From positions 125,406 to 189,405 of the forward strand of contig JBMNJG010000004.1 of NCBI GenBank assembly GCA_050951545.1: DNA of 64,000 nt. Direction: 5' to 3'. A model generated the notes under the pieces. That model was given only the letters and a program-made list of their open reading frames with translations, was not told the origin of the DNA and did no database searches. The position numbers and the translations under genes were made by a program. The DNA comes from Limnochordia bacterium (GTDB taxonomy: Bacteria > Bacillota > Limnochordia > DTU080). Every line of letters begins with the position of its first letter. Position 1 is the stretch's first letter. Shown one piece after another: positions 5,368 to 46,225 of the stretch.

Positions 5368-5389
5368 GAAGCGGGGAGGTTCCCGTGAG

Positions 5390-12166: not shown

Positions 12167-12306
12167 ATAGCCCACGCCTCCCTTTCTAAGGAATGGCTTG
12201 ATACCAGAATGGGGTTCTAGTCCAGATGTCGGGATCCTTCCACTCGGCGCAGGAGAAAGGCGTCTTTCCAGGAAATCTGTCGGTGTTTCTCGAGATGCGG
12301 TAGGAT

Positions 12307-14256: not shown

Positions 14257-14318
14257 GGGAGGGGAGCAGCAAGCCCCCCAATCGCTGCTCCTAGCGGTAC
14301 GGCGATTGGGGGGGATGA

Positions 14319-15797
14319 TCAGGCATGAGGCCCGCACAGGGTGATTGCCTTGCGAATGCGCTCGAGGCAGCTCTGACGGCCTAGAATCTCCATGCTCTCG
14401 ACGAGCGGCGGGCTAACCAAGCGCCCTGTGATGGCGATGCGCAAGGGCTGGAAAGCATCCCTGGCCTTGACTTCAAGCTGCTCAGCGACACCCCGCACAG
14501 CCGCCTCTAGGTCGGTGGGCTGCCAGGGCGTGTGTGACAGCTTCTCCTCTAGAGTCATGAGAACTCGTTTTGCCTTGGCTGTCAGGGCCTTCTTCACAGC
14601 TTTGGGGTCGTACTGCGGTGGGCAGAAAAAGAAATCGGTGATGGCGCCGATTTCTGACAGCACCTTGATGCGCTCTTGTGCTAAGGCGACCACTTTTTCT
14701 AACCGCTCTAGTTCGATACCTTCGGGAGGCCCAGATAGGTATCCCGCTTTCTGCAGAAAGGGGACACAGGCTTGAGTGAGCTCGTCGATTGGCATCGAGC
14801 GGATGTAGTAGCCGTTGAGCCATTCGAGCTTTGTCAGATCGAAAATCGAGGGCGCTCTTGTGACCCGGTCGAGGCTGAATTCGGCTATCATGCGTTCGCG
14901 GCTTATCTCTTCGTTGCCGTCGACTGGTGACCAGCCCATGAGGACCAGGAAATTCAGCAAAGCTTCGGGCAGGAAACCCTTGTCGCGGTAGTCTCCGACG
15001 AAACTATCGCCGTGGCGTTTGCTGAGTTTCGTACGATCTGAGCCCAGGATGTGACCTACGTGAGCGATAACAGGCGGCTCTGCCCCCAGGGCTTCGTAGA
15101 TCAGGATCTGCTGAGGCGTGTTGCTGATGTGTCCCTCGCCTCGGATGACATGGGTGATGCGCATCTCAATGTCGTCAACGGCCACGGCGAAGTTATAGGT
15201 AGGTACACCGTTGCTGCGCACAATGATCGGGTCGGACATGTCATCGGTAGGGGTCTGTATCTGTCCTCGTAAAATGTCTTCGAAGCAGACCACGCTGCCA
15301 TCGGGAACGCGAAAGCGGATGGTTGGCTGGCGTCCCTCTCGCTCCAGAGCGGCCCTTTGGGTTGCACTCAGATGCAGACAGCGGCGGCTGTACGTGTATC
15401 CCGCGCCCTTCTCTTGCGCCTGGGCTCTCTCGGTAGCAAGCTCTTCTGGCGTGCAGTAGCAGAAGTACGCGTGATCCGATTCGATCAGGCGCTTGGCATA
15501 GCGATCGTAGATGCCTAGCCGCTCCATCTGCCGGTAGGGTCCATAGGCACCGCCTATGTCGGGGCCTTCATCCCAAGTTAGGCCGAGCCAGCGCATCTCA
15601 TTGTAGATCACGCTTTCCCATTCAGGTTTGGATCGCTCTTGGTCGGTATCTTCAAACCGCAGAATAAAAACGCCATTCTGACTGCGGGCAAACAGCCAGT
15701 TGAAAAGCGCTGTATGCAGGTTGCCGACGTGGATGGGCCCCGTGGGAGAAGGTGCCATGCGCACGCGGACCTGTGTCTCCTGTGCCACTCGTATCAC
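14319..15797 (-). CDS. gltX: Glutamate--tRNA ligase
   Basis: HIGH-region APSPTGPIHVGNLHTALFNWLFAR, with FILRFEDTD and a KLSKR-type motif. Confidence 0.9.
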   Translation of the reverse strand: MIRVAQETQVRVRMAPSPTGPIHVGNLHTALFNWLFARSQNGVFILRFEDTDQERSKPEWESVIYNEMRWLGLTWDEGPDIGGAYGPYRQMERLGIYDRYAKRLIESDHAYFCYCTPEELATERAQAQEKGAGYTYSRRCLHLSATQRAALEREGRQPTIRFRVPDGSVVCFEDILRGQIQTPTDDMSDPIIVRSNGVPTYNFAVAVDDIEMRITHVIRGEGHISNTPQQILIYEALGAEPPVIAHVGHILGSDRTKLSKRHGDSFVGDYRDKGFLPEALLNFLVLMGWSPVDGNEEISRERMIAEFSLDRVTRAPSIFDLTKLEWLNGYYIRSMPIDELTQACVPFLQKAGYLSGPPEGIELERLEKVVALAQERIKVLSEIGAITDFFFCPPQYDPKAVKKALTAKAKRVLMTLEEKLSHTPWQPTDLEAAVRGVAEQLEVKARDAFQPLRIAITGRLVSPPLVESMEILGRQSCLERIRKAITLCGPHA

Positions 15798-16142
15798 TCC
15801 TCAGAGTATCCTTCTACGTTGAAACATGGCAGGTGGTAGGTCACCATGCATGATTGTACCATACCGCAATACTGACGCGCTTGGTCTGCTTGCTTTCTGG
15901 CCGCTCCGAGAAAATCGAGTGATGCTGTACGGGTGCACGTCGGCGGCTGCTCTCAGTGTTCGCAGTTTGTGACACAAGCTTGCCACCGATAGTGTACGTT
16001 ACGGCGGTGTCAGGAAGCCTTATTCGAGGTTTAGCTCTGCCGATTTCTCGACATAGAGTCATTGCTATAGGAAGGATACTATGGAGGTCTAAGGGAAATG
16101 TGGAGGTGTAATAGGTAGTTATCAACTGAGGGGGTTGAGACA

Positions 16143-17480
16143 ATGGCGCGTCAGATTCGCTGGTGTTTGGCAGTATGCTTGGTGCTCGCTTTGGTCTGGA
16201 TACCAGGGGCCTTGGCGAAGGAACAGGTGGTCTTAAAGTGGACCACATGCTGTGGGCAGGTGGATCGCCACGAGCTGTTTCAGTCGTGGGCACGGCGCTA
16301 TGAGTCCCGTAATCCAGGAATAAAAGTCGAGTGGGAGTACCCTTCTGGTAGCTATGGGGCCGTATTGTTAACGCGAATCGTTGGGGGTGCGGGCCCTGAT
16401 GTGATGTGGATCGGAGGTGCCTACTCAGAGCTGGCCGACCTATTCGCCTCAGTTGACGACATGCGCACGCGCACTGGTGGGCCACTGCGCGATGTCATGC
16501 CTTCGGTGTTTCCCCTGTTCTCGTGGGGAGGGAAGCTAGGTGCTGCACCCTACGGGGCCAACACAGTGCCGTTCTTCATCAACCAGCGCCTCTTCGCTGA
16601 GGCAGGTCTCCAGGTACCGTCACCCAGCTGGACCTGGGATGATTTCCTGGTCTTGATCAAGCGTCTTACGGCGGATCTCGATGGCGATGGCGAGCCCGAC
16701 AGATGGGGCTTTGATATTCGTTCCGGTGGGTACCAAGGTACTGCGGTGTCGTGGGGGGGAGCACCGTTCACCCCGGACGGACGAAAGGTGGCCTTCAACA
16801 ACCCCATTACGGTTGGGGTTACGCAGATTATCGTGGATCTGGTGACCAACAAGCACGGGCCCTATCAGTTACCTGCAGGCCGGGGTGACTTCGCGGCCGT
16901 AGCTAGGTCAGGTGCGGCGGCCATTGTGGCGGGCGGTGTCTGGGGGGTTCCTGCTCTGCGTCAGTTGCCCGAGGATGAATGGGAGGGCATCATCTTCCCT
17001 GGTTATGAGTATCAGGGTGAGCGATATCACGGCACGTATCTCTCAGGAGAGGCGTGGGCCATCTCAAACACAACACCCTACCCAGCAGAGGCTCGGCGCT
17101 TTGTGGAGTTCTTGCTGGATAAGGAGCAGATGCGCGAGTTCGCTCGTCTGGGCGGCATCATCCCCACCCAGCAAGCGGTGGCTCGGGAGTTCTTCCACCC
17201 ATCGACCTCGAAGCCACAAAATATGGCGGCATTCTTGGATTGCCTCGAGGTGGGCAAGCCTCTCTGGAACACCCACCCCGCTGGTAATGAGGTGATTACC
17301 CGGTCAGGTACGGTCTGGTCAGACCTCTGGGCAGGTAGACTGCCTGCCATCACAGCTTACGAGCAGATGGAAGTGATTGGGAACGCCGTCTTGGCCGACT
17401 TTCTGGGCAAAGAAGCAGTAAGGTATTCTCTAGGCGGTCCGTCTCATTCTATAATGACAAGTATGGTTGACGCCTGCTGA
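16143..17480 (+). CDS. ABC transporter substrate-binding protein (family 1, sugar-type), copy 1 of array; divergent, C-terminus frameshifted relative to copies 2-4
   Basis: Signal peptide then KEQVVLKWTTCCGQ... Roughly 85-90% identity to copies 2-4 judged by eye. A 1-nt difference (tttctggg vs ttttggg) removes the canonical stop and extends the ORF 20 codons through the terminator hairpin. Confidence 0.7.
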   Translation: MARQIRWCLAVCLVLALVWIPGALAKEQVVLKWTTCCGQVDRHELFQSWARRYESRNPGIKVEWEYPSGSYGAVLLTRIVGGAGPDVMWIGGAYSELADLFASVDDMRTRTGGPLRDVMPSVFPLFSWGGKLGAAPYGANTVPFFINQRLFAEAGLQVPSPSWTWDDFLVLIKRLTADLDGDGEPDRWGFDIRSGGYQGTAVSWGGAPFTPDGRKVAFNNPITVGVTQIIVDLVTNKHGPYQLPAGRGDFAAVARSGAAAIVAGGVWGVPALRQLPEDEWEGIIFPGYEYQGERYHGTYLSGEAWAISNTTPYPAEARRFVEFLLDKEQMREFARLGGIIPTQQAVAREFFHPSTSKPQNMAAFLDCLEVGKPLWNTHPAGNEVITRSGTVWSDLWAGRLPAITAYEQMEVIGNAVLADFLGKEAVRYSLGGPSHSIMTSMVDAC

Positions 17481-17495
17481 TTAGCGGGCGTCAAC
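17466..17495 (+). terminator. Intrinsic-terminator-like hairpin after SBP copy 1 (gttgacgcctgc/gcgggcgtcaac, loop tgatta), followed by attatctcttt
   Basis: 12-bp stem with one G-U pair. Repeated identically at 18946..18975 and 20426..20455. Confidence 0.5.
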
Positions 17496-17623
17496 ATTAT
17501 CTCTTTGCATAGTTGCTAGACAATGGGGGTCGTAGGTAGAAGGAGATCAATAGAGTCGAAGGGAAACAGGGAGGTGAAATTGTCAGCTATCAAAGCTATC
17601 AGATCGAGGGGGGTTATCACAGA

Positions 17624-18901
17624 ATGACGCGTCCGATTCGCTGGTGTTTGGCACTGTACTTGGTGCTCGCTTTGGTTTGGATACCAGGGGCCTTGGCGAA
17701 GGAACAGGTGGTCTTGAAGTGGACCACATGCTGTGGGCAACTGGATCGTCACGAGCTGTTTCAGTCGTGGGCGCGCCGCTATGAATCTCGTAATCCGGGA
17801 GTTAAGGTGGAGTGGGAGTACCCTGCTGGGAGCTATGGGAACGTGTTGCTGACCCGGATCGTTGGCGGCGCGGGACCTGACGTCATGTGGATCGGGGGCG
17901 CCTACTCACAGTTAGCTGACCTATTCGCCTCTGTGGAAGACATGCGAACGCGCGCTGGGGGGCCGCTGCGTGAGGTCATGCCCCAGGTATTCCCTCTTTT
18001 CACTTGGGGAGGGAAGCTGGGTGCGGCACCTTACGGGGCGAACACGGTGCCGTTCTTTGTCAACCAACGCCTTTTCGCTGAAGCAGGTCTGAGAATACCT
18101 CCACCCAACTGGACCTGGGATGATTTCCTCGTCTTGGTCAAGCGTCTTACTGTGGATCTCGATGGCGATGGCCAGCCCGATCGATGGGGTTTTGACATCC
18201 GCTCCGGAGGATACCAGTTGACCGCGCTCTCCTGGGGAGGAGCACCCTTCTCGCCTGACGGGCGCAAGGTGGCCTTCAATAACCCCATCACGGTTGGGGC
18301 TACACAAACTCTCGCAGATCTAGCAAACAACAGACACGGCCCCTATCAGTTGCCAGCAGGCCGAGGTGACTTCGCGGCAGTGGCGAGGTCTGGCGTGGTG
18401 GCTGTCGTAGCGGGCGGTGTCTGGGGGGTTCCTGCTCTGCGTCAGTTGCCCGAGGATGAATGGGAGGGCATCGTCTTTCCTGCCTATGAATATCAGGGTG
18501 AGCGCTATCACGGCTCCTATCTGTCAGGTGAGGCGTGGGCGATCTCTAACACAACACCATACCCAGAAGAAGCACGGCGGTTCGTAGAGTTCCTGCTGGA
18601 GAAGGAGCAGATGCGTGAGTTCGCCCGTCTGGGCGGCATCATTCCGACCCAGCAGTCGGTGGCCCGGGAGTTCTTCCACCCATCGACCTCGAAGCCACAA
18701 AACATGGCGGCATTCTTGGATTGCCTCGAGGTGGGCAAGCCTCTATACAATATCCACCCCGCTGGAAATGACATCATCTCCCGGTCTGGTCCGGTCTGGT
18801 CAGAGCTGTGGGCAGGCAGAATGCCCGCCTCTGCGGCACTAGAACAGATGGAGGTGATCGGAAACGCCGTCTTGGCCGACTTTTGGGCAAAGAAGCAGTA
18901 A
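17624..18901 (+). CDS. ABC transporter substrate-binding protein (family 1), array copy 2
   Basis: Translation identical to copy 3. GGGGGG RBS. Secretory signal ALA|KEQ without a lipobox Cys. Confidence 0.75.
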   Translation: MTRPIRWCLALYLVLALVWIPGALAKEQVVLKWTTCCGQLDRHELFQSWARRYESRNPGVKVEWEYPAGSYGNVLLTRIVGGAGPDVMWIGGAYSQLADLFASVEDMRTRAGGPLREVMPQVFPLFTWGGKLGAAPYGANTVPFFVNQRLFAEAGLRIPPPNWTWDDFLVLVKRLTVDLDGDGQPDRWGFDIRSGGYQLTALSWGGAPFSPDGRKVAFNNPITVGATQTLADLANNRHGPYQLPAGRGDFAAVARSGVVAVVAGGVWGVPALRQLPEDEWEGIVFPAYEYQGERYHGSYLSGEAWAISNTTPYPEEARRFVEFLLEKEQMREFARLGGIIPTQQSVAREFFHPSTSKPQNMAAFLDCLEVGKPLYNIHPAGNDIISRSGPVWSELWAGRMPASAALEQMEVIGNAVLADFWAKKQ

Positions 18902-18945
18902 GGTATTCTCTAGGCGGTCCGTCTCATTCTATAATGACAAGTATG

Positions 18946-18975
18946 GTTGACGCCTGCTGATTAGCGGGCGTCAAC
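18946..18975 (+). terminator. Same hairpin, copy after SBP 2
   Basis: Identical sequence, part of the 1480-bp repeat. Confidence 0.5.
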
Positions 18976-19103
18976 ATTATCTCTTTGCATAGTTGCTAGA
19001 CAATGGGGGTCGTAGGTAGAAGGAGATCAATAGAGTCGAAGGGAAACAGGGAGGTGAAATTGTCAGCTATCAAAGCTATCAGATCGAGGGGGGTTATCAC
19101 AGA

Positions 19104-20381
19104 ATGACGCGTCCGATTCGCTGGTGTTTGGCACTGTACTTGGTGCTCGCTTTGGTTTGGATACCAGGGGCCTTGGCGAAGGAACAGGTGGTCTTGAAGT
19201 GGACCACATGCTGTGGGCAACTGGATCGTCACGAGCTGTTTCAGTCGTGGGCGCGCCGCTATGAATCTCGTAATCCGGGAGTTAAGGTGGAGTGGGAGTA
19301 CCCTGCTGGGAGCTATGGGAACGTGTTGCTGACCCGGATCGTTGGCGGCGCGGGACCTGACGTCATGTGGATCGGGGGCGCCTACTCACAGTTAGCTGAC
19401 CTATTCGCCTCTGTGGAAGACATGCGAACGCGCGCTGGGGGGCCGCTGCGTGAGGTCATGCCCCAGGTATTCCCTCTTTTCACTTGGGGAGGGAAGCTGG
19501 GTGCGGCACCTTACGGGGCGAACACGGTGCCGTTCTTTGTCAACCAACGCCTTTTCGCTGAAGCAGGTCTGAGAATACCTCCACCCAACTGGACCTGGGA
19601 TGATTTCCTCGTCTTGGTCAAGCGTCTTACTGTGGATCTCGATGGCGATGGCCAGCCCGATCGATGGGGTTTTGACATCCGCTCCGGAGGATACCAGTTG
19701 ACCGCGCTCTCCTGGGGAGGAGCACCCTTCTCGCCTGACGGGCGCAAGGTGGCCTTCAATAACCCCATCACGGTTGGGGCTACACAAACTCTCGCAGATC
19801 TAGCAAACAACAGACACGGCCCCTATCAGTTGCCAGCAGGCCGAGGTGACTTCGCGGCAGTGGCGAGGTCTGGCGTGGTGGCTGTCGTAGCGGGCGGTGT
19901 CTGGGGGGTTCCTGCTCTGCGTCAGTTGCCCGAGGATGAATGGGAGGGCATCGTCTTTCCTGCCTATGAATATCAGGGTGAGCGCTATCACGGCTCCTAT
20001 CTGTCAGGTGAGGCGTGGGCGATCTCTAACACAACACCATACCCAGAAGAAGCACGGCGGTTCGTAGAGTTCCTGCTGGAGAAGGAGCAGATGCGTGAGT
20101 TCGCCCGTCTGGGCGGCATCATTCCGACCCAGCAGTCGGTGGCCCGGGAGTTCTTCCACCCATCGACCTCGAAGCCACAAAACATGGCGGCATTCTTGGA
20201 TTGCCTCGAGGTGGGCAAGCCTCTATACAATATCCACCCCGCTGGAAATGACATCATCTCCCGGTCTGGTCCGGTCTGGTCAGAGCTGTGGGCAGGCAGA
20301 ATGCCCGCCTCTGCGGCACTAGAACAGATGGAGGTGATCGGAAACGCCGTCTTGGCCGACTTTTGGGCAAAGAAGCAGTAA
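19104..20381 (+). CDS. ABC transporter substrate-binding protein (family 1), array copy 3
   Basis: Identical to copy 2 at the sampled nucleotides and in the full translation. Confidence 0.75.
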   Translation: MTRPIRWCLALYLVLALVWIPGALAKEQVVLKWTTCCGQLDRHELFQSWARRYESRNPGVKVEWEYPAGSYGNVLLTRIVGGAGPDVMWIGGAYSQLADLFASVEDMRTRAGGPLREVMPQVFPLFTWGGKLGAAPYGANTVPFFVNQRLFAEAGLRIPPPNWTWDDFLVLVKRLTVDLDGDGQPDRWGFDIRSGGYQLTALSWGGAPFSPDGRKVAFNNPITVGATQTLADLANNRHGPYQLPAGRGDFAAVARSGVVAVVAGGVWGVPALRQLPEDEWEGIVFPAYEYQGERYHGSYLSGEAWAISNTTPYPEEARRFVEFLLEKEQMREFARLGGIIPTQQSVAREFFHPSTSKPQNMAAFLDCLEVGKPLYNIHPAGNDIISRSGPVWSELWAGRMPASAALEQMEVIGNAVLADFWAKKQ

Positions 20382-20425
20382 GGTATTCTCTAGGCGGTCC
20401 GTCTCATTCTATAATGACAAGTATG

Positions 20426-20455
20426 GTTGACGCCTGCTGATTAGCGGGCGTCAAC
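20426..20455 (+). terminator. Same hairpin, copy after SBP 3
   Basis: Identical sequence, part of the 1480-bp repeat. Confidence 0.5.
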
Positions 20456-20583
20456 ATTATCTCTTTGCATAGTTGCTAGACAATGGGGGTCGTAGGTAGA
20501 AGGAGATCAATAGAGTCGAAGGGAAACAGGGAGGTGAAATTGTCAGCTATCAAAGCTATCAGATCGAGGGGGGTTATCACAGA

Positions 20584-21861
20584 ATGACGCGTCCGATTCG
20601 CTGGTGTTTGGCACTGTACTTGGTGCTCGCTTTGGTTTGGATACCAGGGGCCTTGGCGAAGGAACAGGTGGTCTTGAAGTGGACCACATGCTGTGGGCAA
20701 CTGGATCGTCACGAGCTGTTTCAGTCGTGGGCGCGCCGCTATGAATCTCGTAATCCGGGAGTTAAGGTGGAGTGGGAGTACCCTGCTGGGAGCTATGGGA
20801 ACGTGTTGCTGACCCGGATCGTTGGCGGCGCGGGACCTGACGTCATGTGGATCGGGGGCGCCTACTCACAGTTAGCTGACCTATTCGCCTCTGTGGAAGA
20901 CATGCGAACGCGCGCTGGGGGGCCGCTGCGTGAGGTCATGCCCCAGGTATTCCCTCTTTTCACTTGGGGAGGGAAGCTGGGTGCGGCACCTTACGGGGCG
21001 AACACGGTGCCGTTCTTTGTCAACCAACGCCTTTTCGCTGAAGCAGGTCTGAGAATACCTCCACCCAACTGGACCTGGGATGATTTCCTCGTCTTGGTCA
21101 AGCGTCTTACTGTGGATCTCGATGGCGATGGCCAGCCCGATCGATGGGGTTTTGACATCCGCTCCGGAGGATACCAGTTGACCGCGCTCTCCTGGGGAGG
21201 AGCACCCTTCTCGCCTGACGGGCGCAAGGTGGCCTTCAATAACCCCATCACGGTTGGGGCTACACAAACTCTCGCAGATCTAGCAAACAACAGACACGGC
21301 CCCTATCAGTTGCCAGCAGGCCGAGGTGACTTCGCGGCAGTGGCGAGGTCTGGCGTGGTGGCTGTCGTAGCGGGCGGTGTCTGGGGGGTTCCTGCTCTGC
21401 GTCAGTTGCCCGAGGATGAATGGGAGGGCATCGTCTTTCCTGCCTATGAATATCAGGGTGAGCGCTATCACGGCTCCTATCTGTCAGGTGAGGCGTGGGC
21501 GATCTCTAACACAACACCATACCCAGAAGAAGCACGGCGGTTCGTAGAGTTCCTGCTGGAGAAGGAGCAGATGCGTGAGTTCGCCCGTCTGGGCGGCATC
21601 ATTCCGACCCAGCAGTCGGTGGCCCGGGAGTTCTTCCACCCATCGACCTCGAAGCCACAAAACATGGCGGCATTCTTGGATTGCCTCGAGGTGGGCAAGC
21701 CTCTATACAATATCCACCCCGCTGGAAATGACATCATCTCCCGGTCTGGTCCGGTCTGGTCAGAGCTGTGGGCAGGCAGAATGCCCGCCTCTGCGGCACT
21801 AGAACAGATGGAGGTGATCGGAAACGCCGTCTTGGCCGACTTTTGGGCGCAGAAAAAGTAG
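20584..21861 (+). CDS. ABC transporter substrate-binding protein (family 1), array copy 4
   Basis: Identical to copies 2 and 3 except the last 4 residues (WAQKK vs WAKKQ). Repeat identity ends at 21848. Confidence 0.75.
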   Translation: MTRPIRWCLALYLVLALVWIPGALAKEQVVLKWTTCCGQLDRHELFQSWARRYESRNPGVKVEWEYPAGSYGNVLLTRIVGGAGPDVMWIGGAYSQLADLFASVEDMRTRAGGPLREVMPQVFPLFTWGGKLGAAPYGANTVPFFVNQRLFAEAGLRIPPPNWTWDDFLVLVKRLTVDLDGDGQPDRWGFDIRSGGYQLTALSWGGAPFSPDGRKVAFNNPITVGATQTLADLANNRHGPYQLPAGRGDFAAVARSGVVAVVAGGVWGVPALRQLPEDEWEGIVFPAYEYQGERYHGSYLSGEAWAISNTTPYPEEARRFVEFLLEKEQMREFARLGGIIPTQQSVAREFFHPSTSKPQNMAAFLDCLEVGKPLYNIHPAGNDIISRSGPVWSELWAGRMPASAALEQMEVIGNAVLADFWAQKK

Positions 21862-21905
21862 CATCGTGTGCCTGTTGTCTGCGGCTTTATGATGGGAAGC
21901 ACGCG

Positions 21906-21933
21906 CATAGGCGCCCGGGTTCGGGCGCCTATG
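21906..21933. promoter_or_regulatory. Perfect 12-bp-arm palindrome (cataggcgcccg ggtt cgggcgcctatg) between SBP copy 4 and the Gfo/Idh/MocA gene
   Basis: Exact inverted repeat with no downstream T-run. Candidate operator or RNA stem rather than a terminator. Confidence 0.35.
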
Positions 21934-21963
21934 CCTACCAACCAGGAAGAAAGGGATGAAAGT

Positions 21964-22974
21964 ATGAGTAGGGTCCGTCTGGCAGTGGTTGGTTGCGGGG
22001 CGATGTTCAATACTCACGCTCAGGGTCTGAAGCAGCTGCTCGATCGTGTTGAGATCACCTATGCAGTCGATGCTGTTGAGGATAGGGCGCAGAAAGCGGC
22101 AGCGCAGTTTCCAGGCACCAAGGCCGCTACAGACTACCGACAGGTACTCGACGAAGTCGATGCGGTGATGCTGGTTCTGCCATACCACCTTCACCATCCG
22201 GTAGCCAAGGCATGCCTCGGTGCTGGCAAGCATGTGCTCCTAGAGAAACCCATGGCCAACAGCGAGGCAGAATGCCTGGATCTAATCGAAACAGCGGAAA
22301 GGTCTGGCCAGGTGTTCATGATCGCCTACTGCATGCGCTTCCATCCTCTGGTGCTCGCCATGAAAAAGCTACTGGATGAGAGAGCCTATGGCGATGTGTT
22401 CCAGGTCTCGATCTGGACGGAGCAGCTGACCATTCGTCCGCCTGATCACTGGTCACACCTACCATCAACGGGTGGGGGGCAGCTGTTTACGCATGGGTGT
22501 CACTACATCGACATCCTCCTCTGGCTCTTGGGTCGGCCACTGCGGGGCACACATATCGGTACGGAATTTGGCACCCCTTGGATGAGCAGAGAAGGGACCA
22601 GCAACGTCTGCCTCGAGTTCGAAGGTGGTCGGCTGGCTTACCACTTCGGGACATGGGGCGCTAGAGGCACGCGCCTAGGGTACGCTTTCCATGCCCACTG
22701 CACTGACGGCATGATAGAAGCAGATATCCGACACAGTCGACTAGTCGTGCACCGAAGAGGTCAGCAGATCGTGCTTGTTGAGAGCGCAGCTGGCAAACAG
22801 ACTGAAAATGAGATGCATCACTTTCTCGAGTGCATTGAGACAAGCAGGCGGCCGCTGACCGACGGGCCCGGAAGTCTGCAGGGTCTGAGAGTGATCTGGC
22901 GACTGTATGAGGCTGAACGGCAACAGACAGTGGCCGATCTGCGTGGATTGGGTCTTGACGAGTACCAACGGTAA
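21964..22974 (+). CDS. Gfo/Idh/MocA family NAD(P)-dependent oxidoreductase
   Basis: Opens MSRVRLAVVGCGAMFNTHAQ with a Rossmann N-terminus. Start reset to ATG 21964 with AGGAAGAAAGGG RBS. Confidence 0.75.
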   Translation: MSRVRLAVVGCGAMFNTHAQGLKQLLDRVEITYAVDAVEDRAQKAAAQFPGTKAATDYRQVLDEVDAVMLVLPYHLHHPVAKACLGAGKHVLLEKPMANSEAECLDLIETAERSGQVFMIAYCMRFHPLVLAMKKLLDERAYGDVFQVSIWTEQLTIRPPDHWSHLPSTGGGQLFTHGCHYIDILLWLLGRPLRGTHIGTEFGTPWMSREGTSNVCLEFEGGRLAYHFGTWGARGTRLGYAFHAHCTDGMIEADIRHSRLVVHRRGQQIVLVESAAGKQTENEMHHFLECIETSRRPLTDGPGSLQGLRVIWRLYEAERQQTVADLRGLGLDEYQR

Positions 22975-23100
22975 ACTTTCTGTGGCTCTATGACAACCGC
23001 ACGGACAACAACATTGCCAGAGGCTTGTTCTCACGCCCAGAGATAAGGAACACGGGTACGATCGGGATTTCGTCATGCACGAGCTAGGGAGGGAGAGTCT

Positions 23101-24402
23101 ATGACGTTATTCATGATGTTAACCGACAGGGCGAGATGGGGAACCGGACAGCGAATATTTCGACTGATGCTTGCTATGATGTTGTTGCTGCACATAGCCA
23201 CTGGGACAGTGAACAGTGCGGATAAGACAAAGGTGACGATGAGTACATGGGGATCACCGGAGTTCTGGGATCTGCACGAGGAAGGCATTGCCGAGTTTGA
23301 GAAGTTGAACCCACAGATAGATGTCGAGCTTCTGCGCCTACCCTGTTGCGATAAGCAATACTGGGAAGCGGTTATGGTCAGAAGTGCGGCAGGGCAGATG
23401 CCCGATGTCTTTCGCATCTGGTCAACCCAACAGACAGACATCTACCGCTCTGGGCTGGCCTTGGATATTTCCTCATATGTTTCTAAGGATGCCACGTATT
23501 TCAAGCAGTTTTTCGTTCCTCCGCTAGGCCTGGGCAAGCGCACCTATGCCCTCGCTGATGTGGTAATAGTCAACTATCTCCATACCAATGAGGACATGAT
23601 GGCCAAAGTGGGATTGGAGTCGCCAGCCGATCTGTACGTCAAGGGAGCGTGGGACTACCGCGCGCTCGAGGCGACGTCGCGTCGCGTAGCGCAACGCGAC
23701 GAGCACGGCAATCCGAAGGCCTTAGGGATGATCATGATCGTGCCTGACGTCTTTTTCGTTGGTGCGTGGGTGCAGATCTTTGGCGGCAGCTGGTTTGATG
23801 CTGAATTCCGTGCTTCTCAGTTTAACCAGCCTCCGGCTCTGCAAGCTCTGACGTGGTTGCAGGAGCGCTTGTCGGAGGGTAGCTTCGTCGCTAACGGTCG
23901 GTACGCTTCCTTGGAGAAGGCTGGGGAATGGGGATTGTGGTTTCAGTGGAACCTGCCCCCGGCGCCTGGTGGAGCCTATGGCAACATGCAAGCTGGCTAT
24001 GTGCCATTCCCGCGAGGACCAGCTCGTGACACGACGAGCTTCCGCGTGGAGCCGTGGGCGGTGGCTGCAGCCAGTAAGCATCCGCAAGAGGCGTATGAAC
24101 TCATCAAGTACATGGCAGGTCCGGGAATACGCTTCATGATCGGAAAGCAGGGGAAGGTGCCCAACTATCGCCCATCCATGGGGCTTCTGAATGCTCACGC
24201 CTCTCGCTTCGCCTACGGACTTGGCCCGCTACAGCAGCAACTCGACAAGATGGTTCCTCAGCCTGTGCCTCCTGAGCAGCGGCGGATATATGACACTCTG
24301 TTCCCCGCACTGCGTAGCATCGCAGAGGGCCAGATAGGCGCACAAGCTGCGATGGATGATGTAGCACGCCAGGTAGACGCCATCCTGCAATCAGTTAACT
24401 GA
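23101..24402 (+). CDS. ABC transporter substrate-binding protein (family 1, carbohydrate)
   Basis: Signal peptide plus SBP_bac_1-like composition. GGGAGGGAG RBS. Confidence 0.7.
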   Translation: MTLFMMLTDRARWGTGQRIFRLMLAMMLLLHIATGTVNSADKTKVTMSTWGSPEFWDLHEEGIAEFEKLNPQIDVELLRLPCCDKQYWEAVMVRSAAGQMPDVFRIWSTQQTDIYRSGLALDISSYVSKDATYFKQFFVPPLGLGKRTYALADVVIVNYLHTNEDMMAKVGLESPADLYVKGAWDYRALEATSRRVAQRDEHGNPKALGMIMIVPDVFFVGAWVQIFGGSWFDAEFRASQFNQPPALQALTWLQERLSEGSFVANGRYASLEKAGEWGLWFQWNLPPAPGGAYGNMQAGYVPFPRGPARDTTSFRVEPWAVAAASKHPQEAYELIKYMAGPGIRFMIGKQGKVPNYRPSMGLLNAHASRFAYGLGPLQQQLDKMVPQPVPPEQRRIYDTLFPALRSIAEGQIGAQAAMDDVARQVDAILQSVN

Positions 24403-24436
24403 TGAAGCAAGCACATACAAAGGGGCTGAACACACT

Positions 24437-26737
24437 GTGGCTTCCGATCTCGGGGAGAATGCTTTGCTGGAACACACGAAATCAAGCTGTGCTTTTAGGA
24501 CAGGATCCGGTGTCTTTGTGCGCATCGAGGCCATCTCGCCACACATCATGCGCTGGCGTCTATCCCATGACGGGAAGTGGAGGCAGTCCCCGCTTAACAG
24601 GTATGGGTTTGTCAGTGAGAATGTGGGGAGTGACAGTCCGCACATTGTGCTCACCGAGCGCCCGGATGCCATCCAGCTGGCCACTGAAGTGTTGCAGGTG
24701 CGCACAGAACGCGCCTCTGGGCGGATGCAGTTCTGTAACGCCTCGGGGCGCCGTCTACTCCAGGGAAGTGCTACCGACGGTTTCAGGGTAAGCGCCGAGG
24801 GCCATGTGGCCAGCTTTGACATTGGCCCAGATGAGCTTTTTTACGGTTTCGGTGATCAGAATCGAGAACGGTTAGAACACCGAGGCACAAGTCCTCGCAT
24901 GTGGGTGACCAATGTCAACCGCTACATCCCCATCCCCTTCTTCATGAGCAACCGAGGGTATGGGATGCTCGTCAACACCACCCGAGATCTCGCTTTCGAT
25001 ATAGGAAGTAAGTCGGCCGATCGTTTGACCTTCACAGTCATCGGTACCGATGTCGACTTCTACTTCATCTACGGACCGGAGCCTGCGGCCATTCTCGATC
25101 ATTACACTCGATTGACGGGAAGACCCACGCTACCGCCAAAGTGGTCATTCGGTCTGTGGTTTGTCTGTCGCACGCAGGCGAATGATCATGAAGTGATTAC
25201 CGATGCTTATACTTTCCGTCGCGAAGGTATTCCTTGCGATGCCATCATGCTGGAGCCCGGTTGGATGCAGACCTTCTACGACGCTTCTGTGAAGAAGGAT
25301 TGGCACGTAGAACGTTTTCCCATTCCATCGTATAGCCGTACGGGTCCTGACAACTTCCCTGCGGCACTCAAGAGAATGGGCTTCAAAATCGGTCTATGGG
25401 AATGCAATGACTATGATCTGTCCATAGAGGCTGAGCGCCGACTCATGAGCCAAGAAGAGATGGATGCCCGAGACCAGGATCGCGGGGTGGACGACGGCAC
25501 AAGCGAAGCGATCTACTTGGAGCCCGATGAGCATCTACGTATGCCTAGACGGCTTGATTCGCTGACTCAGAAGAACGAACCGTGGTTTGAGCATCACAAG
25601 AAGTTCATCGATCAGGGCGTGGACTTTTTCAAGCAGGATGGGGCCTATCAAGTTCTGGATCACCCGGACCGTCTCTGGGCGAACGGAATGACAGATGCTG
25701 AGATGCACAATTTGTACCCCCTGTTGTACTCGCAGCAAATGTACGAGGGCTTCAAGGAGTATACGAAGCGGCGACCCTGTTGCTTTACGCCAGCTGGTTG
25801 GGCTGGTTTGCAGCGCTACACGGGCACCTGGACCGGAGACACAGGTGGTGGCCCAGGCACTATTCTGGCTTGTCTCAATTTGGCTATGAGCGGCCATCAC
25901 CTCGTCACGTGTGATATGCAGGTAACGAGCAAGGAGGGCATCCACTACGGTTTTCTCCTTCCTTGGGCACAGGTCAACAGCTGGAACTACTGGCGGCATC
26001 CGTGGCTTCTCGGCGATGAGCTCGGGCCTATCTTCAAGGAGTATGCAGAACTGCGCTACCGCCTTCTGCCATACATCTATAGCTGCGCTTATGAAGCCCA
26101 TCTGACTGGCATGCCACTGATGCGACCGATGCCCCTGGCCTTTGCCACCGAGCCAGAATCTCATAACTATCTACGGCAGTGGATGTTTGGCCCGGCGCTC
26201 TTAGTGGGGGCCTTCTGCGATGAGCTATATCTGCCAGGCAGTGGAGTCTGGCACGATTACTGGACGGGAGAGTGCATTCAGGCGCCGTGTACCATTGTCT
26301 ACACTGCACCGCCCAATCGAGGCGGAGCTCTGTTTGTCAAGGGCGGTACGCTTCTTCCAATGGCGCCGCCTCAGCCTTATGTGGGGTCAGCTCCAGCGAA
26401 CACGATGACACTCGAGGTATTCCCCGGCGCTGACGGCCATTTCCGGCTATATGACGATGACGGGGTCAGTCTGGACTATGAACACGGTCGTTACGCGGTG
26501 ACGCCATTCTGCGTGAAGCAGGAGACCAATGCTCTGACCATCGGTATTGGCGAGCGTCAGGGAAGCTATTCTGGCATGCCTGACCAGGTGCTTTATACGC
26601 TGGAGGTTCACATGCCAGAGCAGCCCGCGCGCGTGAGCACAGATGCTGGCGAAGCCAAGTGGTGCCACAAGGATGGTCTGTTGCGGGTGGATCTGGGTGC
26701 AGTGGGCCGCAAGGGATGTGTGTGCAAAATCATGTAG
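24437..26737 (+). CDS. Glycoside hydrolase family 31 (alpha-glucosidase/alpha-xylosidase-like)
   Basis: 766 aa carrying the GH31-type HNLYPLL motif and KQDGAYQV region. GTG start. Confidence 0.7.
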   Translation: MASDLGENALLEHTKSSCAFRTGSGVFVRIEAISPHIMRWRLSHDGKWRQSPLNRYGFVSENVGSDSPHIVLTERPDAIQLATEVLQVRTERASGRMQFCNASGRRLLQGSATDGFRVSAEGHVASFDIGPDELFYGFGDQNRERLEHRGTSPRMWVTNVNRYIPIPFFMSNRGYGMLVNTTRDLAFDIGSKSADRLTFTVIGTDVDFYFIYGPEPAAILDHYTRLTGRPTLPPKWSFGLWFVCRTQANDHEVITDAYTFRREGIPCDAIMLEPGWMQTFYDASVKKDWHVERFPIPSYSRTGPDNFPAALKRMGFKIGLWECNDYDLSIEAERRLMSQEEMDARDQDRGVDDGTSEAIYLEPDEHLRMPRRLDSLTQKNEPWFEHHKKFIDQGVDFFKQDGAYQVLDHPDRLWANGMTDAEMHNLYPLLYSQQMYEGFKEYTKRRPCCFTPAGWAGLQRYTGTWTGDTGGGPGTILACLNLAMSGHHLVTCDMQVTSKEGIHYGFLLPWAQVNSWNYWRHPWLLGDELGPIFKEYAELRYRLLPYIYSCAYEAHLTGMPLMRPMPLAFATEPESHNYLRQWMFGPALLVGAFCDELYLPGSGVWHDYWTGECIQAPCTIVYTAPPNRGGALFVKGGTLLPMAPPQPYVGSAPANTMTLEVFPGADGHFRLYDDDGVSLDYEHGRYAVTPFCVKQETNALTIGIGERQGSYSGMPDQVLYTLEVHMPEQPARVSTDAGEAKWCHKDGLLRVDLGAVGRKGCVCKIM

Positions 26738-26759
26738 TAGAAGTAGGGGAGGACTAGTC

Positions 26760-28037
26760 ATGAGGATGATCGGGCGAAAGAGCACGGCTTGTCGTATTCT
26801 TATGGTCTTCGCAGTGGTGTTTTCCAGTGTACTGGCTCAAGGGGCTAAGGTGCAACTCGTACACTTCACGTACTCGGGCCATGGCGAGCGATGGCAGGCG
26901 TGGCTGGGGGCCATCGCGAAGGATTTCGAGGCTGCTACAGGTATTGGCGTAAGGGTAGAGGTGTCGATGAGCAGCGGCGACTACCAGCCCAAGCTGTTGA
27001 CAATGGTGGCTGGTGGAGTGGCGCCCGATGTCACTGATGCTCATCCCATGCTGGCGGCACCTTTCATCGCTCAGGACATTTTCGAAGACCTGGGCCCGTA
27101 CATCAAGCGAGACAAGGTGCCGTTGGAGCGGATACCTCCTGCGATTGTCAGAGGGGTACAGACACCTGATGGTGTGATGTGGGGTCTCCCAGTCAGCGTC
27201 TACCCGGTCGTTACGTTCTTCAATGCCGATATGTTTGCAGAAGCCGGAATAGCCAACCCTATTCAGCTTGGCGAAAACTGGACCTGGGAAACGGCAACCA
27301 CGAGTGCTCAACGGCTGACTGTTGATGCGGACCGGGATGGCGTGCCCGAACGCTATGGTCTCAACGCTATCTCCGCACGCTATGAACAGCAGGTTCATCA
27401 GGCAGGCGGCACTCTCTACGATCGCCTCGTCTATCCTACAAACAGCCGCTTCAACACGCCACCAGTTCAAACTGCACTCCAATGGATTCAGTCTCTATAC
27501 GTTGACCGACTGGCATCAACTAGCGGCAATGTGCAGGTGTATCGTGGCAATGCTGCGTTTAGCGTGACAGAAGGCCCAGGTTTTATCTCGGCATACTACC
27601 AAGACGTCCCCTTTAGCTGGGATATCGCCGTTCAGCCCAAGGGCCCTGCCAATCGCGCCGCACGCGTCAACCCTGATGGTTTTCAGATCTTGGCAGCTAG
27701 TCAACACAAAGATGCCGCATGGAAGTGGATCCATTTTCTGACTACGAGTGTGGATAACCAACTGGAGTTGGTAAGATACACTAGCCGCATGCCCGCTCTG
27801 AGGGAGGCCATGCTGCGTTACCCGAAAGTGAGTACGGGAAAGCAACCGGATAACTGGTATGCGCTGGTTGATACAGCCTTCGATCCCGACGGCTATGCCG
27901 CCTACGTAATCCCCAACGCCACGGTCATCGATCCTGTGGTAAACGCGGTGCTTAACCGGATATGGCGGGGCGAGATAGCCGTGGCCACTGCGCTGGAGCA
28001 GATCGACCAACAGGTGAACGCATTGCTTCGGCCATAG
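26760..28037 (+). CDS. ABC transporter substrate-binding protein (family 1)
   Basis: Opens MRMIGRKSTACRILMVFAVVFSSVLAQG (signal peptide) and is SBP-like thereafter. Start reset to ATG 26760 with GGGGAGG RBS. Confidence 0.7.
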   Translation: MRMIGRKSTACRILMVFAVVFSSVLAQGAKVQLVHFTYSGHGERWQAWLGAIAKDFEAATGIGVRVEVSMSSGDYQPKLLTMVAGGVAPDVTDAHPMLAAPFIAQDIFEDLGPYIKRDKVPLERIPPAIVRGVQTPDGVMWGLPVSVYPVVTFFNADMFAEAGIANPIQLGENWTWETATTSAQRLTVDADRDGVPERYGLNAISARYEQQVHQAGGTLYDRLVYPTNSRFNTPPVQTALQWIQSLYVDRLASTSGNVQVYRGNAAFSVTEGPGFISAYYQDVPFSWDIAVQPKGPANRAARVNPDGFQILAASQHKDAAWKWIHFLTTSVDNQLELVRYTSRMPALREAMLRYPKVSTGKQPDNWYALVDTAFDPDGYAAYVIPNATVIDPVVNAVLNRIWRGEIAVATALEQIDQQVNALLRP

Positions 28038-28115
28038 GCCTGCAGGCGAAGCAAGCGCGGCTAGAGAAGCAGAACGGCAGGGTTAACCCGTGGGCCAGTT
28101 GAATGGGGGCATACA

Positions 28116-29372
28116 ATGGCGAACGATCATCCAAGAATCCGCGTGGGGGTGGTGGGCGTCAGGCGCGGCCGGACCTTCATGAATCAGGCGCCCGCCGCCG
28201 GGATGGAGCTCGTCGCGATCTGCGATACATGGGAAGAGAAGCTGAGAGAGGTCAATGCGAAGTATAACGTGGCGACATACACAGACTACGACGCTTTTCT
28301 AGAACACGATATGGATGCGGTCGTTACCGCCAACTACTTCCACCAGCACGCGCCCTTGGCGATCAAAGCTCTGCGAGCTGGCAAGCATGTCATGAGCGAA
28401 TGCGCGGCTTGTCATACGCTTGCGGAGGGAGTAGCGCTGTGTCGTGAGGTCGAGCGGAGCGGGCTGATCTACATGTTGGCTGAGAACTACCCATATACAG
28501 CAGCCAACCTTGAGTTACACCGGCTGTACCAAGCAGGAGCCATTGGTGAGGTCATGTACGCGGAGGGAGAGTACAACCATCCCATGAAAAGGGAGGACTG
28601 GATGCGCATCTCTCCTGGTCTCAGACACTGGCGCAACAATCTGGCGGCGACCTACTACTGCACGCACGCCCTGGCTCCACTGATGCACATCACTGACACC
28701 ATGCCGGTCTCCGTAAACGCCTTGGCTATACCCTGGGCGAAGCCAGACCCGCTTAGTGTCAGACGTCAAGATGCTGGGGCTGTCACTCTCTGTCGCATGG
28801 GCAATGGTGCTGTCTTTCGCCTTTTCGGCATCAACGTTCCGGGGCACAGTATTTGGTACCGCCTGCATGGATCACGCGGCTTGGCTGAACTGACGAGAGG
28901 TGGAGGCTATTGGGGTCCCGGTCACGTGCGCCTCGCGCATGACCCATGGGATGTGTTGCCAGGTGAAGAGGAGGAGCGGATTTATGCTCCTGAGTTTCCA
29001 GCCTGGGCTCAGAGAGCAGCAGAGGCGGGACATGGTGGCGGAGACTTCTTTACGAGTTACCTGTTCGCTGAGGCCATTCGAACTGGTGAGCAGCCGTATC
29101 TCAACGTCTATCGGGGCGTGGCTATGTCAGTGGTGGGCATACAGGCCTGGAAATCCTGCCTGGAGAATGGCCAGCCCTATGAGATCCCGGATTTCACGGA
29201 CGAAAAGGCGCGTGCATTGCACGAGAACGACCACTGGTCCCCATTTCCGGAGGATGCTGGTCCTGGCCAGCCGTTTCCAAGCATTCGGGGCGATATCCAG
29301 TCGACGCCAGAAGCAATCGCTTATGCCCGCCAACTCTGGGAGGAGCAGCTTGGTTTTCGCGAGCAAGACTGA
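28116..29372 (+). CDS. Gfo/Idh/MocA family oxidoreductase
   Basis: Opens MANDHPRIRVGVVGVRRGRTF... with an N-terminal Rossmann fold. Confidence 0.75.
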   Translation: MANDHPRIRVGVVGVRRGRTFMNQAPAAGMELVAICDTWEEKLREVNAKYNVATYTDYDAFLEHDMDAVVTANYFHQHAPLAIKALRAGKHVMSECAACHTLAEGVALCREVERSGLIYMLAENYPYTAANLELHRLYQAGAIGEVMYAEGEYNHPMKREDWMRISPGLRHWRNNLAATYYCTHALAPLMHITDTMPVSVNALAIPWAKPDPLSVRRQDAGAVTLCRMGNGAVFRLFGINVPGHSIWYRLHGSRGLAELTRGGGYWGPGHVRLAHDPWDVLPGEEEERIYAPEFPAWAQRAAEAGHGGGDFFTSYLFAEAIRTGEQPYLNVYRGVAMSVVGIQAWKSCLENGQPYEIPDFTDEKARALHENDHWSPFPEDAGPGQPFPSIRGDIQSTPEAIAYARQLWEEQLGFREQD

Positions 29373-29375
29373 GCT

Positions 29376-30029
29376 TTGAGGGCGAGGGTGACAGATGTGG
29401 AGCGGGTGATTCACGTCATCGTCAACGGTATTCAGCTGCATCTAGAGACGCGGCCTGGGTTGTTCTCGCCCGCTCGGCTAGATCCGGGGACGCTCGCCAT
29501 GCTATCGGTTACGAAGCTGGCACCTAGGGAGAAGGTGCTAGATCTCGGCTGCGGATACGGGCTTGTCGGTATCTACATGGCCAGACTGTGTGGTGCACAG
29601 CAGGTGGTGATGTCGGATGACGATCCGCTCGCGCTTGAGGTGGCTCGTCGAAACGCGGTCAGCAATGGCCTAGAGGATATCCGGGTTCTCTTGAGCGACG
29701 GGTTTGAGCAGATTGCTGATGAGGACTTCACGCTGATTATGGCGAACCCGCCCTATCATGCTGATTTCTCTGTGCCCAAGGGTTTCATCGAGGGGGCTCG
29801 ACGCCATCTGACCGTCGGTGGGCGTTTGGTGATGGTGGTTAAGCGCGTGACATGGTACAGAAACAAGATGCAGAGTGTCTTTGGCGGGGTACGGGTGACA
29901 CTAGCAGACGGCTACGCAGTGCTGGAGTCAGAGAAACGGGGTGGCTCGCCGAGAGCAAAGCCTATCAAGGCCACGACCAAGAAGCACTTGCGTCGTGTTC
30001 AGGCCTCCGCTGCAAGAAAGCGCCATTAG
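29376..30029 (+). CDS. Class I SAM-dependent methyltransferase (RsmC/MTS-like, NPPY motif)
   Basis: VLDLGCGYGLVG (motif I) and MANPPYH (motif IV). Confidence 0.65.
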   Translation: MRARVTDVERVIHVIVNGIQLHLETRPGLFSPARLDPGTLAMLSVTKLAPREKVLDLGCGYGLVGIYMARLCGAQQVVMSDDDPLALEVARRNAVSNGLEDIRVLLSDGFEQIADEDFTLIMANPPYHADFSVPKGFIEGARRHLTVGGRLVMVVKRVTWYRNKMQSVFGGVRVTLADGYAVLESEKRGGSPRAKPIKATTKKHLRRVQASAARKRH

Positions 30030-33965: not shown

Positions 33966-34635
33966 CTGCTAGCACAACATATGGTACCCAGATCAGTATA
34001 GACCCCTACATCTTGACCGTCAAAAGAGATTAGATCACGTTTGGATGTGTCTGACTCCCATTTTCGCGTGCGCAGGAGCTTTTGCTCGCTATCTTGGACA
34101 GACTACAGTAGTGGTCCAGAGGAGTACGCATGCCCGCACAGCATCACATGATCCTCTGGGGAGGTGAGTGTTCATGGGAAACATAGGCACATACGATGCT
34201 TTGTTACGTATAGGCACCGGCGCTTTGGCCTTGGCGTGGGCGAGTAGCCGATCCCGCTGGAGCGGGATTACGTCGCTTGTCGCAACTTGTGGCGCTGTGC
34301 TTGTCGGGGAAGGCATCACTCGTTTCAGCCCTCTCTATGCTGTCATGTCTCTGACAACTGTCGAGGATGAGGGAGAAAAGGTGATCTTGCGTGTGGGCCC
34401 GGTGACCTATCGCCGCCGCCCCCATAGTTCGAGAGCTGGATGCACGCTATGGGGCGTGACTCAAGACACGACCCTGCTGACGAATCACCTGAGCTCAGTT
34501 CGCTGTCGGCGAACAAGACGGACTGGCATTCACCGCGACGATGGGAGCCTACTTGACCTAGTGGCAGGGAAAGCGCGCCAGATGTGGAAGAACCAGAGCG
34601 TGCGCAAAGCAGCTCAGGGAGGGTCAGGTAATAGT

Positions 34636-37229: not shown

Positions 37230-37402
37230 AACTCTTATCTAGAGTGGCAGAGGGACTGGCCCGATGAAGCCCGGCAACCGGCAACCCGTGTGGTTGTGTC
37301 ATGGTGCTAATTCCTGCAGGATCACAGATCCTGGAAGATGAGAGGGAGTCTGCAGATGATTTTTCGTCAATATGCCTCTCCCTTTCTCAGGAGAGGTTTT
37401 TT
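37230..37402 (+). ncRNA. SAM-I (S-box) riboswitch with terminator expression platform
   Basis: CTCTTATCtAGAGtGGcaGAGGGACTGGCCCGATGAAGCCCGGCAACC...GGTGCTAATTCCTGCAG...GATGAGAGG matches the S-box consensus. The terminator CCTCTCC-loop-GGAGAGG+TTTTTT lies at 37374-37402. Confidence 0.85.
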
Positions 37403-37430
37403 GCGTGCCAGATCAAGGAGGTCAACACCG

Positions 37431-46181: not shown

Positions 46182-46225
46182 CATGTATAATAGGAGCGAG
46201 AGCCACGTCTTACTGGAGTGACAAG

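Follow-up and report, generated by a model that had tools for sequence, protein, structure and literature searches.

The carbohydrate island at positions 16143-29372 of the window analysed here (the whole 64-kb stretch of Limnochordia bacterium contig JBMNJG010000004.1) encodes six solute-binding proteins (SBPs), three of which come from tandem copies of one gene, and lacks genes for a transporter to which they might belong. We consider it probable, while leaving room for doubt, that these SBPs are periplasmic oligosaccharide receptors of the CUT1 type, encoded beside catabolic genes and docking to a core permease and ATPase encoded elsewhere; amplification of the gene for SBP_B would then raise the ratio of receptor to transporter. 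The free periplasmic SBPs, which carry signal peptides of the signal peptidase I type and not lipid anchors, would capture oligosaccharides and dock to a shared membrane permease and its ATPase. Once imported, the sugars would be processed by the cytoplasmic GH31 glycosidase, the DgpA-like Gfo1 and the GH109-like Gfo2.

Pfam scans covered about 55 large open reading frames (ORFs) across the window, and the region of about 10 kb upstream of its start was read from a matching metagenome contig. The features of the island are collected in table 1. Six ORFs match SBP_bac_1/SBP_bac_8 over the mature protein (E 6.5e-17 to 3e-30), in agreement with the six family-1 SBPs of a preliminary description made from the letters of the window. 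They represent only three families: A/B, with four members, C and D. The single GH31 gene of that description is a full four-domain enzyme. Its three Gfo/Idh/MocA genes are two in this interval; two further ones stand in tandem outside the island (40531-41646 and 41667-42569, both on the plus strand). No island protein exceeds the cut-off of an NCBIfam model, the SBPs having no model match at all, and Rfam finds no leader RNA in the island. Matches to sigma-70 promoters were no more frequent than expected from shuffled sequence.

Table 1. Features of the island and their positions in the window.
Feature	Position	Strand	Evidence or remark
SBP_A	16143-17480	+	Pfam SBP_bac_1 9e-30
SBP_B1, 425 aa	17624-18901	+	Pfam 3e-30; ALA↓KE site, WTTCCGQ loop; NCBI MGI6609534/35
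SBP_B2, identical to B1	19104-20381	+	sequence comparison
SBP_B3, as B1 except C-terminal tail AQKK vs AKKQ	20584-21861	+	tail past repeat end
Perfect tandem repeat, 3 x 1480 bp + 5 bp	17404-21848	.	shift comparison; repeat families D1-D5
Hairpin, 13-bp stem, after SBP stop codon	17466-17495; again 18946-18975, 20426-20455	+	terminator-like, weak T tail
Gfo1, Gfo/Idh/MocA oxidoreductase	21964-22974	+	Pfam; PDB 7xr9 9.5e-26; first gene of inserted block
SBP_C	23101-24402	+	Pfam 6.5e-17; NSA↓DK site, no Cys
GH31 alpha-glycosidase	24518-26737 (ORF open from 24437)	+	four GH31 Pfam domains
SBP_D	26760-28037 (ORF open from 26643)	+	Pfam 2e-27; VLA↓QG site
Gfo2, GH109-like NAD-binding protein	28116-29372	+	PDB 2ixa 6e-16, 6t2b 9e-15

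Orphan receptor genes and the cell envelope

The Pfam scans of the window detected neither a BPD_transp_1 permease nor an ABC_tran ATPase, and regulators of the LacI, GntR, ROK or AraC type were likewise absent. The 10 kb or so beyond the window start also contain no permease, ATP-binding cassette (ABC) ATPase or sugar-type regulator. The only multi-pass membrane proteins of the window are a rhomboid, a P-type-ATPase homologue, SpoIIE, BioY and an Asp-Al_Ex permease. The statement of the preliminary description that no permease, ATPase or regulator occurs in the window is thus correct for permeases, ABC ATPases and sugar regulators but too broad as worded, for NrdR, a BirA-type helix-turn-helix (HTH) protein, FtsH and the P-type-ATPase homologue are all encoded here, none of them related to sugar transport. 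Nor is there a permease just outside the island in the same operon, a possibility it had raised; the genes for glutamyl-tRNA synthetase (GluRS) and ribonucleotide reductase (RNR), both on the opposite strand, bound the island.

Is the missing permease an accident of this window? We examined related loci with local hidden Markov models (HMMs) for SBP, CUT1 permease, ABC ATPase, Gfo and GH31, counting the SBP genes that have a permease gene within 4 kb. In the loci of the A/B family (the window, L006, L007, L147, L148 and L150) the count was 0 of 12, and in the GH31-linked loci (L064, L065, L066, L068 and L069) it was 0 of 8, that is, 0/20 SBP genes in 11 loci. For distant homologues in other phyla (L008-L056) it was 39 of 41. 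Precomputed Pfam tables and a scan for transmembrane helices and hydrophobicity agree with these counts. The contexts themselves are varied. One A/B-family gene lies between hemN and hrcA-grpE-dnaK (L147), another between OsmC and GlpP (L148), and a third locus holds a cluster of three SBPs with amidohydrolases (L150). In L068, where the GH31 enzyme is 72% identical to that of the window, four SBP genes and an RpiR-like gene are found, and no permease in 17.8 kb. We conclude that the permease-less layout is a conserved property of these SBP families.

If no permease is linked, do these receptors serve transport at all? None of the three enzymes GH31, Gfo1 and Gfo2 has a signal peptide, and their substrates must therefore be imported across the inner membrane. 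The structural evidence points the same way. The AlphaFold2 model of SBP_B, a two-lobed periplasmic-binding-protein fold (mean predicted local distance difference test score 87.6, predicted template-modelling score 0.85), matches 9xfu, 5f7v, 6rjy and 7bvt in Foldseek with E values of 1e-25, and the top of the list comprises only oligosaccharide ABC receptors; those structures bind cycloisomalto-oligosaccharides, cycloalternan, arabino-oligosaccharides and beta-1,2-gluco-oligosaccharides. Matches of SBP_B to PDB sequences are likewise sugar SBPs. For SBP_C and SBP_D, compared by sequence only, the nearest PDB entry is the cycloalternan-binding Lmo0181, which SBP_D matches over its full length (4e-21). 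An orthologue of SBP_C (44%) lies directly upstream of GH31 in L064, and SBP genes are placed likewise in L068 and L069. Substrate assignments here are those of the nearest solved structure only, and by that measure the ligands may be similar to alpha-gluco-oligosaccharides.

The A/B proteins have a peculiarity of their own. The family is small, with 14 clusters at E <= 1e-10 in a word-indexed search and 45 representatives at E <= 1e-30 in an exhaustive HMMER search, and it carries the motif W-T-T-C-C-[GANS]-Q-x-[DA]-R-H-[ET] at residues 33-44 of SBP_B1. In the SBP_B model this loop connects beta-strand 1 (residues 29-34) with helix 1 (40-56), and presumably corresponds to the loop that in MalE holds the ligand-contacting Asp14 and Lys15. 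Of the distant representatives (28-58% identity), 14 among the first 24 retain the CC-x-Q element, which ordinary SBP_bac_1 outgroups lack. It is unusual for an exported receptor to have a conserved vicinal Cys pair, and this one keeps a non-transport reading alive.

Could the orphan SBPs, A/B especially, then sense ligands in the periplasm and pass the signal on by docking, in the manner of ChvE, LuxP and TorT, to a sensor kinase or chemoreceptor, or have a redox or metal-linked function that involves the Cys pair? We regard this as unlikely, if not negligibly so. No chemoreceptor or kinase gene is linked in any locus; the neighbours in fold and in sequence are all transport SBPs for oligosaccharides; and SBP_C and SBP_D adjoin a cytoplasmic GH31 that needs import. 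Amplification of dosage, too, fits a role in capture. What speaks for a role outside transport is the absence of a permease from all six independent contexts of A/B, some of which (L147, L148) are purely housekeeping, together with the W-T-T-C-C-x-Q-x-D-R-H-E sequence in the beta1-alpha1 loop and its persistence among distant representatives. A wider proposal, which we hold to be about as doubtful, would make the A/B proteins a lineage-restricted SBP subfamily that has abandoned ABC transport, marked by CC-x-Q in the ligand loop after beta-strand 1 and never encoded with a permease, in some cases within housekeeping operons. Its members would work on their own in the periplasm, as receptors for sensing or for redox or metal-linked binding, and sugar uptake in Limnochordia would be organized around a single permease hub served by receptors dispersed over the genome.

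How are the SBPs held in the envelope? Signal peptides were called by hand rules (n-, h- and c-regions, AXA-type sites). Each of the six SBPs has a positively charged n-region, a hydrophobic core and a small-x-small site (table 1), and the lipobox patterns G+LPP and PROSITE PS51257 match 0 of the 6, a lipobox being [LVI][ASTVI][GAS]C where the signal peptide ends. The homologues of the A/B family that we examined have the same type of signal peptide, again without a lipobox. The patterns do recognize lipoproteins: GH31-linked SBPs of the monoderm Paenibacillus hodogayensis match both, and the fn3 protein at 2640-3710 of the window (LAGGC) matches PS51257. Among the distant homologues, those of Thermaceae lack the Cys and that of Mycobacterium reads LAAC, a pattern which indicates that the presence of a lipobox follows the type of envelope.

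The absence of a lipobox, claimed in the preliminary description, is thereby borne out; its premise that this is atypical of a monoderm Firmicute finds no support. Gfo2, SBP_B and SBP_C are 100% identical to NCBI proteins from a metagenome-assembled genome (MAG) labelled 'Limnochordia bacterium', with consecutive accessions (MGI6609534-41) on a contig of 350 kb. The closest loci of the genome collection and their synteny (L006 and L007, below) agree with a placement in this class. Limnochordia are a class of Bacillota for which PMC11456536 describes an outer membrane from electron microscopy of cultured members; the same source summarizes Taib et al. 2020 as having found the outer-membrane gene cluster in all 46 uncultured Limnochordia genomes examined. 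In a diderm host, cleavable signal peptides of the non-lipoprotein type are what one would expect. The window itself contains no genes for outer-membrane biogenesis.

A monoderm host, in which uncleaved N-terminal signal-anchor helices hold the SBPs and the missing lipobox is a real peculiarity, is very improbable in our judgement. The label and the diderm state of the class contradict it, and in every SBP a small-x-small site (ALA↓K, NSA↓D, VLA↓Q) directly follows the hydrophobic core, even though each protein has the one N-terminal hydrophobic helix that such anchoring would use. The sporulation proteins SpoIIE and SleB-like of the window are typical of Firmicutes, which would suit a monoderm; the class, however, is diderm and yet keeps sporulation genes.

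The window has genes for SpoIIE, TilS and FtsH at 43938-49746 (plus strand) and for the SleB-like cell-wall hydrolase at 54891-55574 (plus strand); a lineage that is reportedly diderm has thus kept sporulation genes.

Amplification of SBP_B and history of the locus

The interval 17404-21848 is a tandem repeat of 1480 bp in 3.003 copies, which the preliminary description had missed. A direct comparison at shift 1480 gave 0 mismatches over 2965 positions (17404-20368); Tandem Repeats Finder, run with a period limit of 500, did not detect it. Each unit consists of the last 18 nt or so of an SBP gene, the hairpin, an intergenic leader of about 130 nt and the body of SBP_B. It runs from the final codons of SBP_A to the corresponding place in SBP_B, and a junction within the homologous 3' ends of two genes is the signature of unequal crossing-over. 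SBP_A and SBP_B are 88% identical in amino acids and about 85% in nucleotides. SBP_A is an older paralogue of the amplified gene, the synonymous divergence (dS) between the two being 0.65. The ratio of non-synonymous to synonymous divergence (dN/dS), 0.10, places both under purifying selection and hence argues that the genes are functional.

Copies that are perfectly identical invite the suspicion of an assembly artefact, and a copy A with a frameshifted tail that of decaying pseudogenes. We give these explanations hardly any credence. An independent contig of 304 kb from the Joint Genome Institute (JGI), L001, has the same four-gene array with the same spacing, and 24 differences separate it from the window along 21 kb. 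The junction from unit to unit is also present in four shorter contigs from other samples (L002-L005), which brings it to contigs from five metagenome samples, the copy number being given by two assemblies. All ORFs are intact, and decay does not agree with a dN/dS of 0.10. That assemblers struggle at the locus is nonetheless apparent from two chimeric ORFs in short JGI metagenome contigs: P0266 (536 aa), in which a PhoH-like C-terminus follows residues 1 to ~417 of SBP_B, and P0252 (287 aa), which joins SBP_B residues 1-65 to the esterase of window 11120-12403. Both are probably misassemblies at the repeat.

The frameshift itself is due to an extra C at window position 17403, which changes the end of SBP_A from ...ADFWAKKQ (stop) to ...ADFLGKEAV...DAC (stop), an out-of-frame tail of 24 residues that runs into the terminator hairpin. 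This C is absent from L001, while L002-L004 each show a single gap over the segment, and the cluster member P0241 keeps the normal end ...ADFWAKKQ. In its place L001 carries a B-like gene-conversion tract over 17336-17403, an indication that the SBP copies are still exchanging sequence.

How did the array and its surroundings arise? In the genome collection the closest loci are L006, from a Limnochordia MAG, and L007, from 'Clostridia bacterium DTU080'. Both have the order GluRS on the minus strand, one A/B-type SBP (79-83% identical in amino acids), Gfo2 (87-89%), a methyltransferase (MTS) and RNR on the minus strand. Gfo1 is absent from both. SBP_A and SBP_B are closer to each other than to the SBP of L006 or L007. 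The single-SBP layout implies that the lineage of the window duplicated the SBP gene, gained a block of genes and amplified SBP_B. The order of events would be, first, an old duplication of one SBP gene into A and B; secondly, insertion of Gfo1-SBP_C-GH31-SBP_D as a block that separated the SBP from Gfo2; and thirdly, a very recent unequal crossing-over in which A and B recombined at their 3' ends, after which the new identical units recombined once more to give the three B copies. As these layouts show, Gfo2 was already the neighbour of a single SBP before the GH31 block arrived. Each B copy has its own leader and hairpin and could thus contribute to a higher dosage of receptor, from which the cell may benefit.

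The same three copies, each so equipped, might instead speak for a high-copy periplasmic 'binding buffer', in which the SBPs retain scarce oligosaccharides and amplification is selected for binding capacity and not for delivery. We think this quite improbable as a separate explanation. It is compatible with the model of docking to a shared transporter, and retention pays only if a transporter finally takes the sugar.

Among the three roles that the preliminary description had offered for orphan SBPs, pairing with a permease elsewhere is accordingly the best supported, through the need of the cytoplasmic enzymes for import and the purifying selection on A and B, with the sharing of one permease presumed. 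Several points weigh against the reading of the SBPs as receptors for such a permease. No partner permease or ATPase was seen in the window and the 10 kb or so upstream, and it is by presumption that one is shared. The permease HMM behind 0/20 versus 39/41 was trained on the control loci, though the Pfam tables and the transmembrane scan bear the contrast out. The orphan state of the A/B family in 6/6 contexts and its conserved Cys-Cys pair would fit a non-transport role equally well. The diderm state of the host is taken from its taxon label and the literature, and the location of the SBPs in a periplasm would follow from it. Finally, the B copy number of three derives from assemblies, not from read depth.

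Enzymes of the island and neighbouring genes

The GH31 enzyme has an N-terminal beta-sandwich, a TIM barrel and two C-terminal domains (PF13802, PF01055, PF21365 and PF17137). Its first PDB matches are 6jr6/6jr8 (5e-64), deposited as a candidate alpha-glycosidase, which we take to be the dextranase of Flavobacterium johnsoniae; alpha-xylosidases follow. Two catalytic-motif residues, D374 (FKQDG) and D441 (TGDTGG), do not vary among 23 homologues and are presumably equivalent to D416 and D482 of YicI. An alpha-(1,6)/(1,3)-gluco-oligosaccharide or an alpha-xyloside is no more than a reasonable guess for the substrate.

What do the two Gfo proteins contribute? The nearest solved structure to Gfo1 is DgpA (7xr9), a glycoside 3-oxidising enzyme. 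Gfo2 combines a Rossmann NAD domain with a GH109 C-terminal domain (PF21252 is weak in the scan and listed for homologues), and its AGHGGG aligns with GAGHGG of 2ixa and GGHGG of 6t2b, so that the His of the catalytic loop is kept, as is the EIPDFT motif at the C-terminal side. Rossmann domain, C-terminal domain, loop His and EIPDFT are thus shared with the GH109 enzymes NagA of E. meningosepticum (2ixa) and AmGH109A of Akkermansia (6t2b). Unlike GH109 enzymes, which are usually secreted, Gfo2 has no export signal, and the similarity amounts only to E ~1e-15. The role of the GGHGG loop is taken from the title of Teze 2020, as cited in PMC10755693. Relatives of Gfo2 at 62-71% identity number more than 4000, in Chloroflexota and Bacillota, and are mostly solitary genes in housekeeping or unrelated contexts; they would constitute a large uncharacterised family of cytoplasmic GH109-like proteins. 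Gfo2 is probably co-transcribed with the methyltransferase gene downstream (29376-30029). A functional partnership of Gfo2 with the SBPs was considered and rejected as unproven, given these solitary homologues, and identity of the Gfo proteins as sulfoquinovosidase or GH188 was set aside on account of the PDB matches to GH109 and DgpA.

Do GH31 and Gfo genes form an oxidative pathway, as the preliminary description had suggested for an alpha-linked glycoside? We surveyed the clade of the GH31 enzyme in 42 loci with flanks of at least 8 kb. A Gfo gene was present in 13 and a permease in 1; an SBP gene occurred in 5, all of them closest relatives of the window locus. On these figures a general linkage of GH31 with SBPs was rejected. 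The oxidative route is permitted and weakly supported: the 13 loci speak for it, while the Gfo genes beside the GH31 clade are not orthologous and Gfo2 was at the locus before the GH31 block. In the literature we found nothing specific on a GH31 plus Gfo/Idh/MocA pathway or on SBPs of Limnochordia.

The Paenibacillus hodogayensis locus (L066) has an architecture of its own. At 4101-7118 and 13430-16459, both on the minus strand, it encodes two fusions of about 1005 aa between a full GH31, 40% identical to the window enzyme, and a C-terminal AraC-type HTH domain. Genes for lipoprotein SBPs, an extracytoplasmic function (ECF) sigma factor, a further GH31 and Gfo proteins surround the fusions, and the 18 kb contain no permease. 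A short Gfo that follows GH31 there resembles, by inspection of the N-terminal sequences only, the second of the two Gfo proteins outside the island of the window (300 aa).

Some further features of the window deserve mention. The RNR large subunit (30085-33432, minus strand) contains an intein at about 31579-32307 with a LAGLIDADG domain (Pfam Intein_splicing, LAGLIDADG_3); the L007 orthologue lacks the insert, its alignment being split into residues 1-375 and 619-1115. The heavy-metal P-type ATPase homologue at 12307-14256 (plus strand) scores 123 bits against a family cut-off of 346 bits. Its DKTGT reads NVTTIT and its CPC reads IPG, and the protein is probably catalytically dead by these residues; even so, L006 and L007 have it beside GluRS with 62-65% conservation. 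The sole Rfam match in the window is an S-adenosylmethionine (SAM) riboswitch (RF00162, 95.8 bits; 37232-37344, plus strand), directly upstream of a pyridoxal-phosphate enzyme of Cys/Met metabolism (37338-38720). The protein encoded at 34168-36084 (plus strand) begins with a YgaP-like transmembrane domain, to which an ADP-dependent glucokinase/phosphofructokinase domain is fused; another Khk/ADP_PFK-like gene is found immediately upstream of the window (L057).

Comparison with known receptor systems

What does such an arrangement imply beyond this locus? For receptors of this kind the inference of transporters from operons, as used in annotation and in metabolic models, fails. The host class comprises poorly studied diderm Firmicutes that are common in digesters and compost. 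As the analysis shows, the type of envelope is the first thing to check when a Firmicute has a 'missing lipobox'. Should a single permease hub be served by many receptors, the range of substrates would be set by the gain, loss and amplification of receptor genes, and the three identical B copies show receptor amplification under way in natural populations.

The island exemplifies with unusual clarity the 'orphan binding protein' arrangement, which is already known; it is not a new kind of system. A precedent with multiple SBPs is the Cbc system of Pseudomonas (Thomas 2010, 'Homes for the orphans', and Chen 2010, both as cited in PMC12838199). There too the SBP genes (CbcX, CaiX and BetX) are unlinked from the permease and ATPase and lie beside catabolic genes for the ligands, and a single core transporter is presumably shared by several receptors. 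The island differs in that its SBPs are of the CUT1 sugar type and its host is a diderm Firmicute. It differs also in that orphanhood is family-wide (0/20, 11 loci), that one receptor gene is present in three identical copies and that the system is known here from its receptor genes only. FhuD1 and FhuD2 of Staphylococcus aureus are a further example of multiple SBPs.

With canonical CUT1 operons such as MalEFG and the cycloalternan locus of Listeria (lmo0178-0184), the island shares the fold and family of the SBPs and the pairing of an SBP with a cytoplasmic GH31. Listeria Lmo0181, the nearest structure to SBP_C and SBP_D, is also the second Foldseek match for SBP_B. In contrast to those operons, the island locus has neither MalF/MalG-type permease genes nor a regulator, whereas the distant homologues of Thermaceae and Mycobacterium do have permeases (39/41).

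The array itself resembles known tandem amplifications between paralogues in its head-to-tail identical units, in the position of the junction within homologous segments of the flanking paralogues and in the differences that can be seen from strain to strain in the conversion tract. The mechanism is an ordinary one. What sets this case apart is the cargo, for that which has been amplified is the receptor of a transporter without its transporter.

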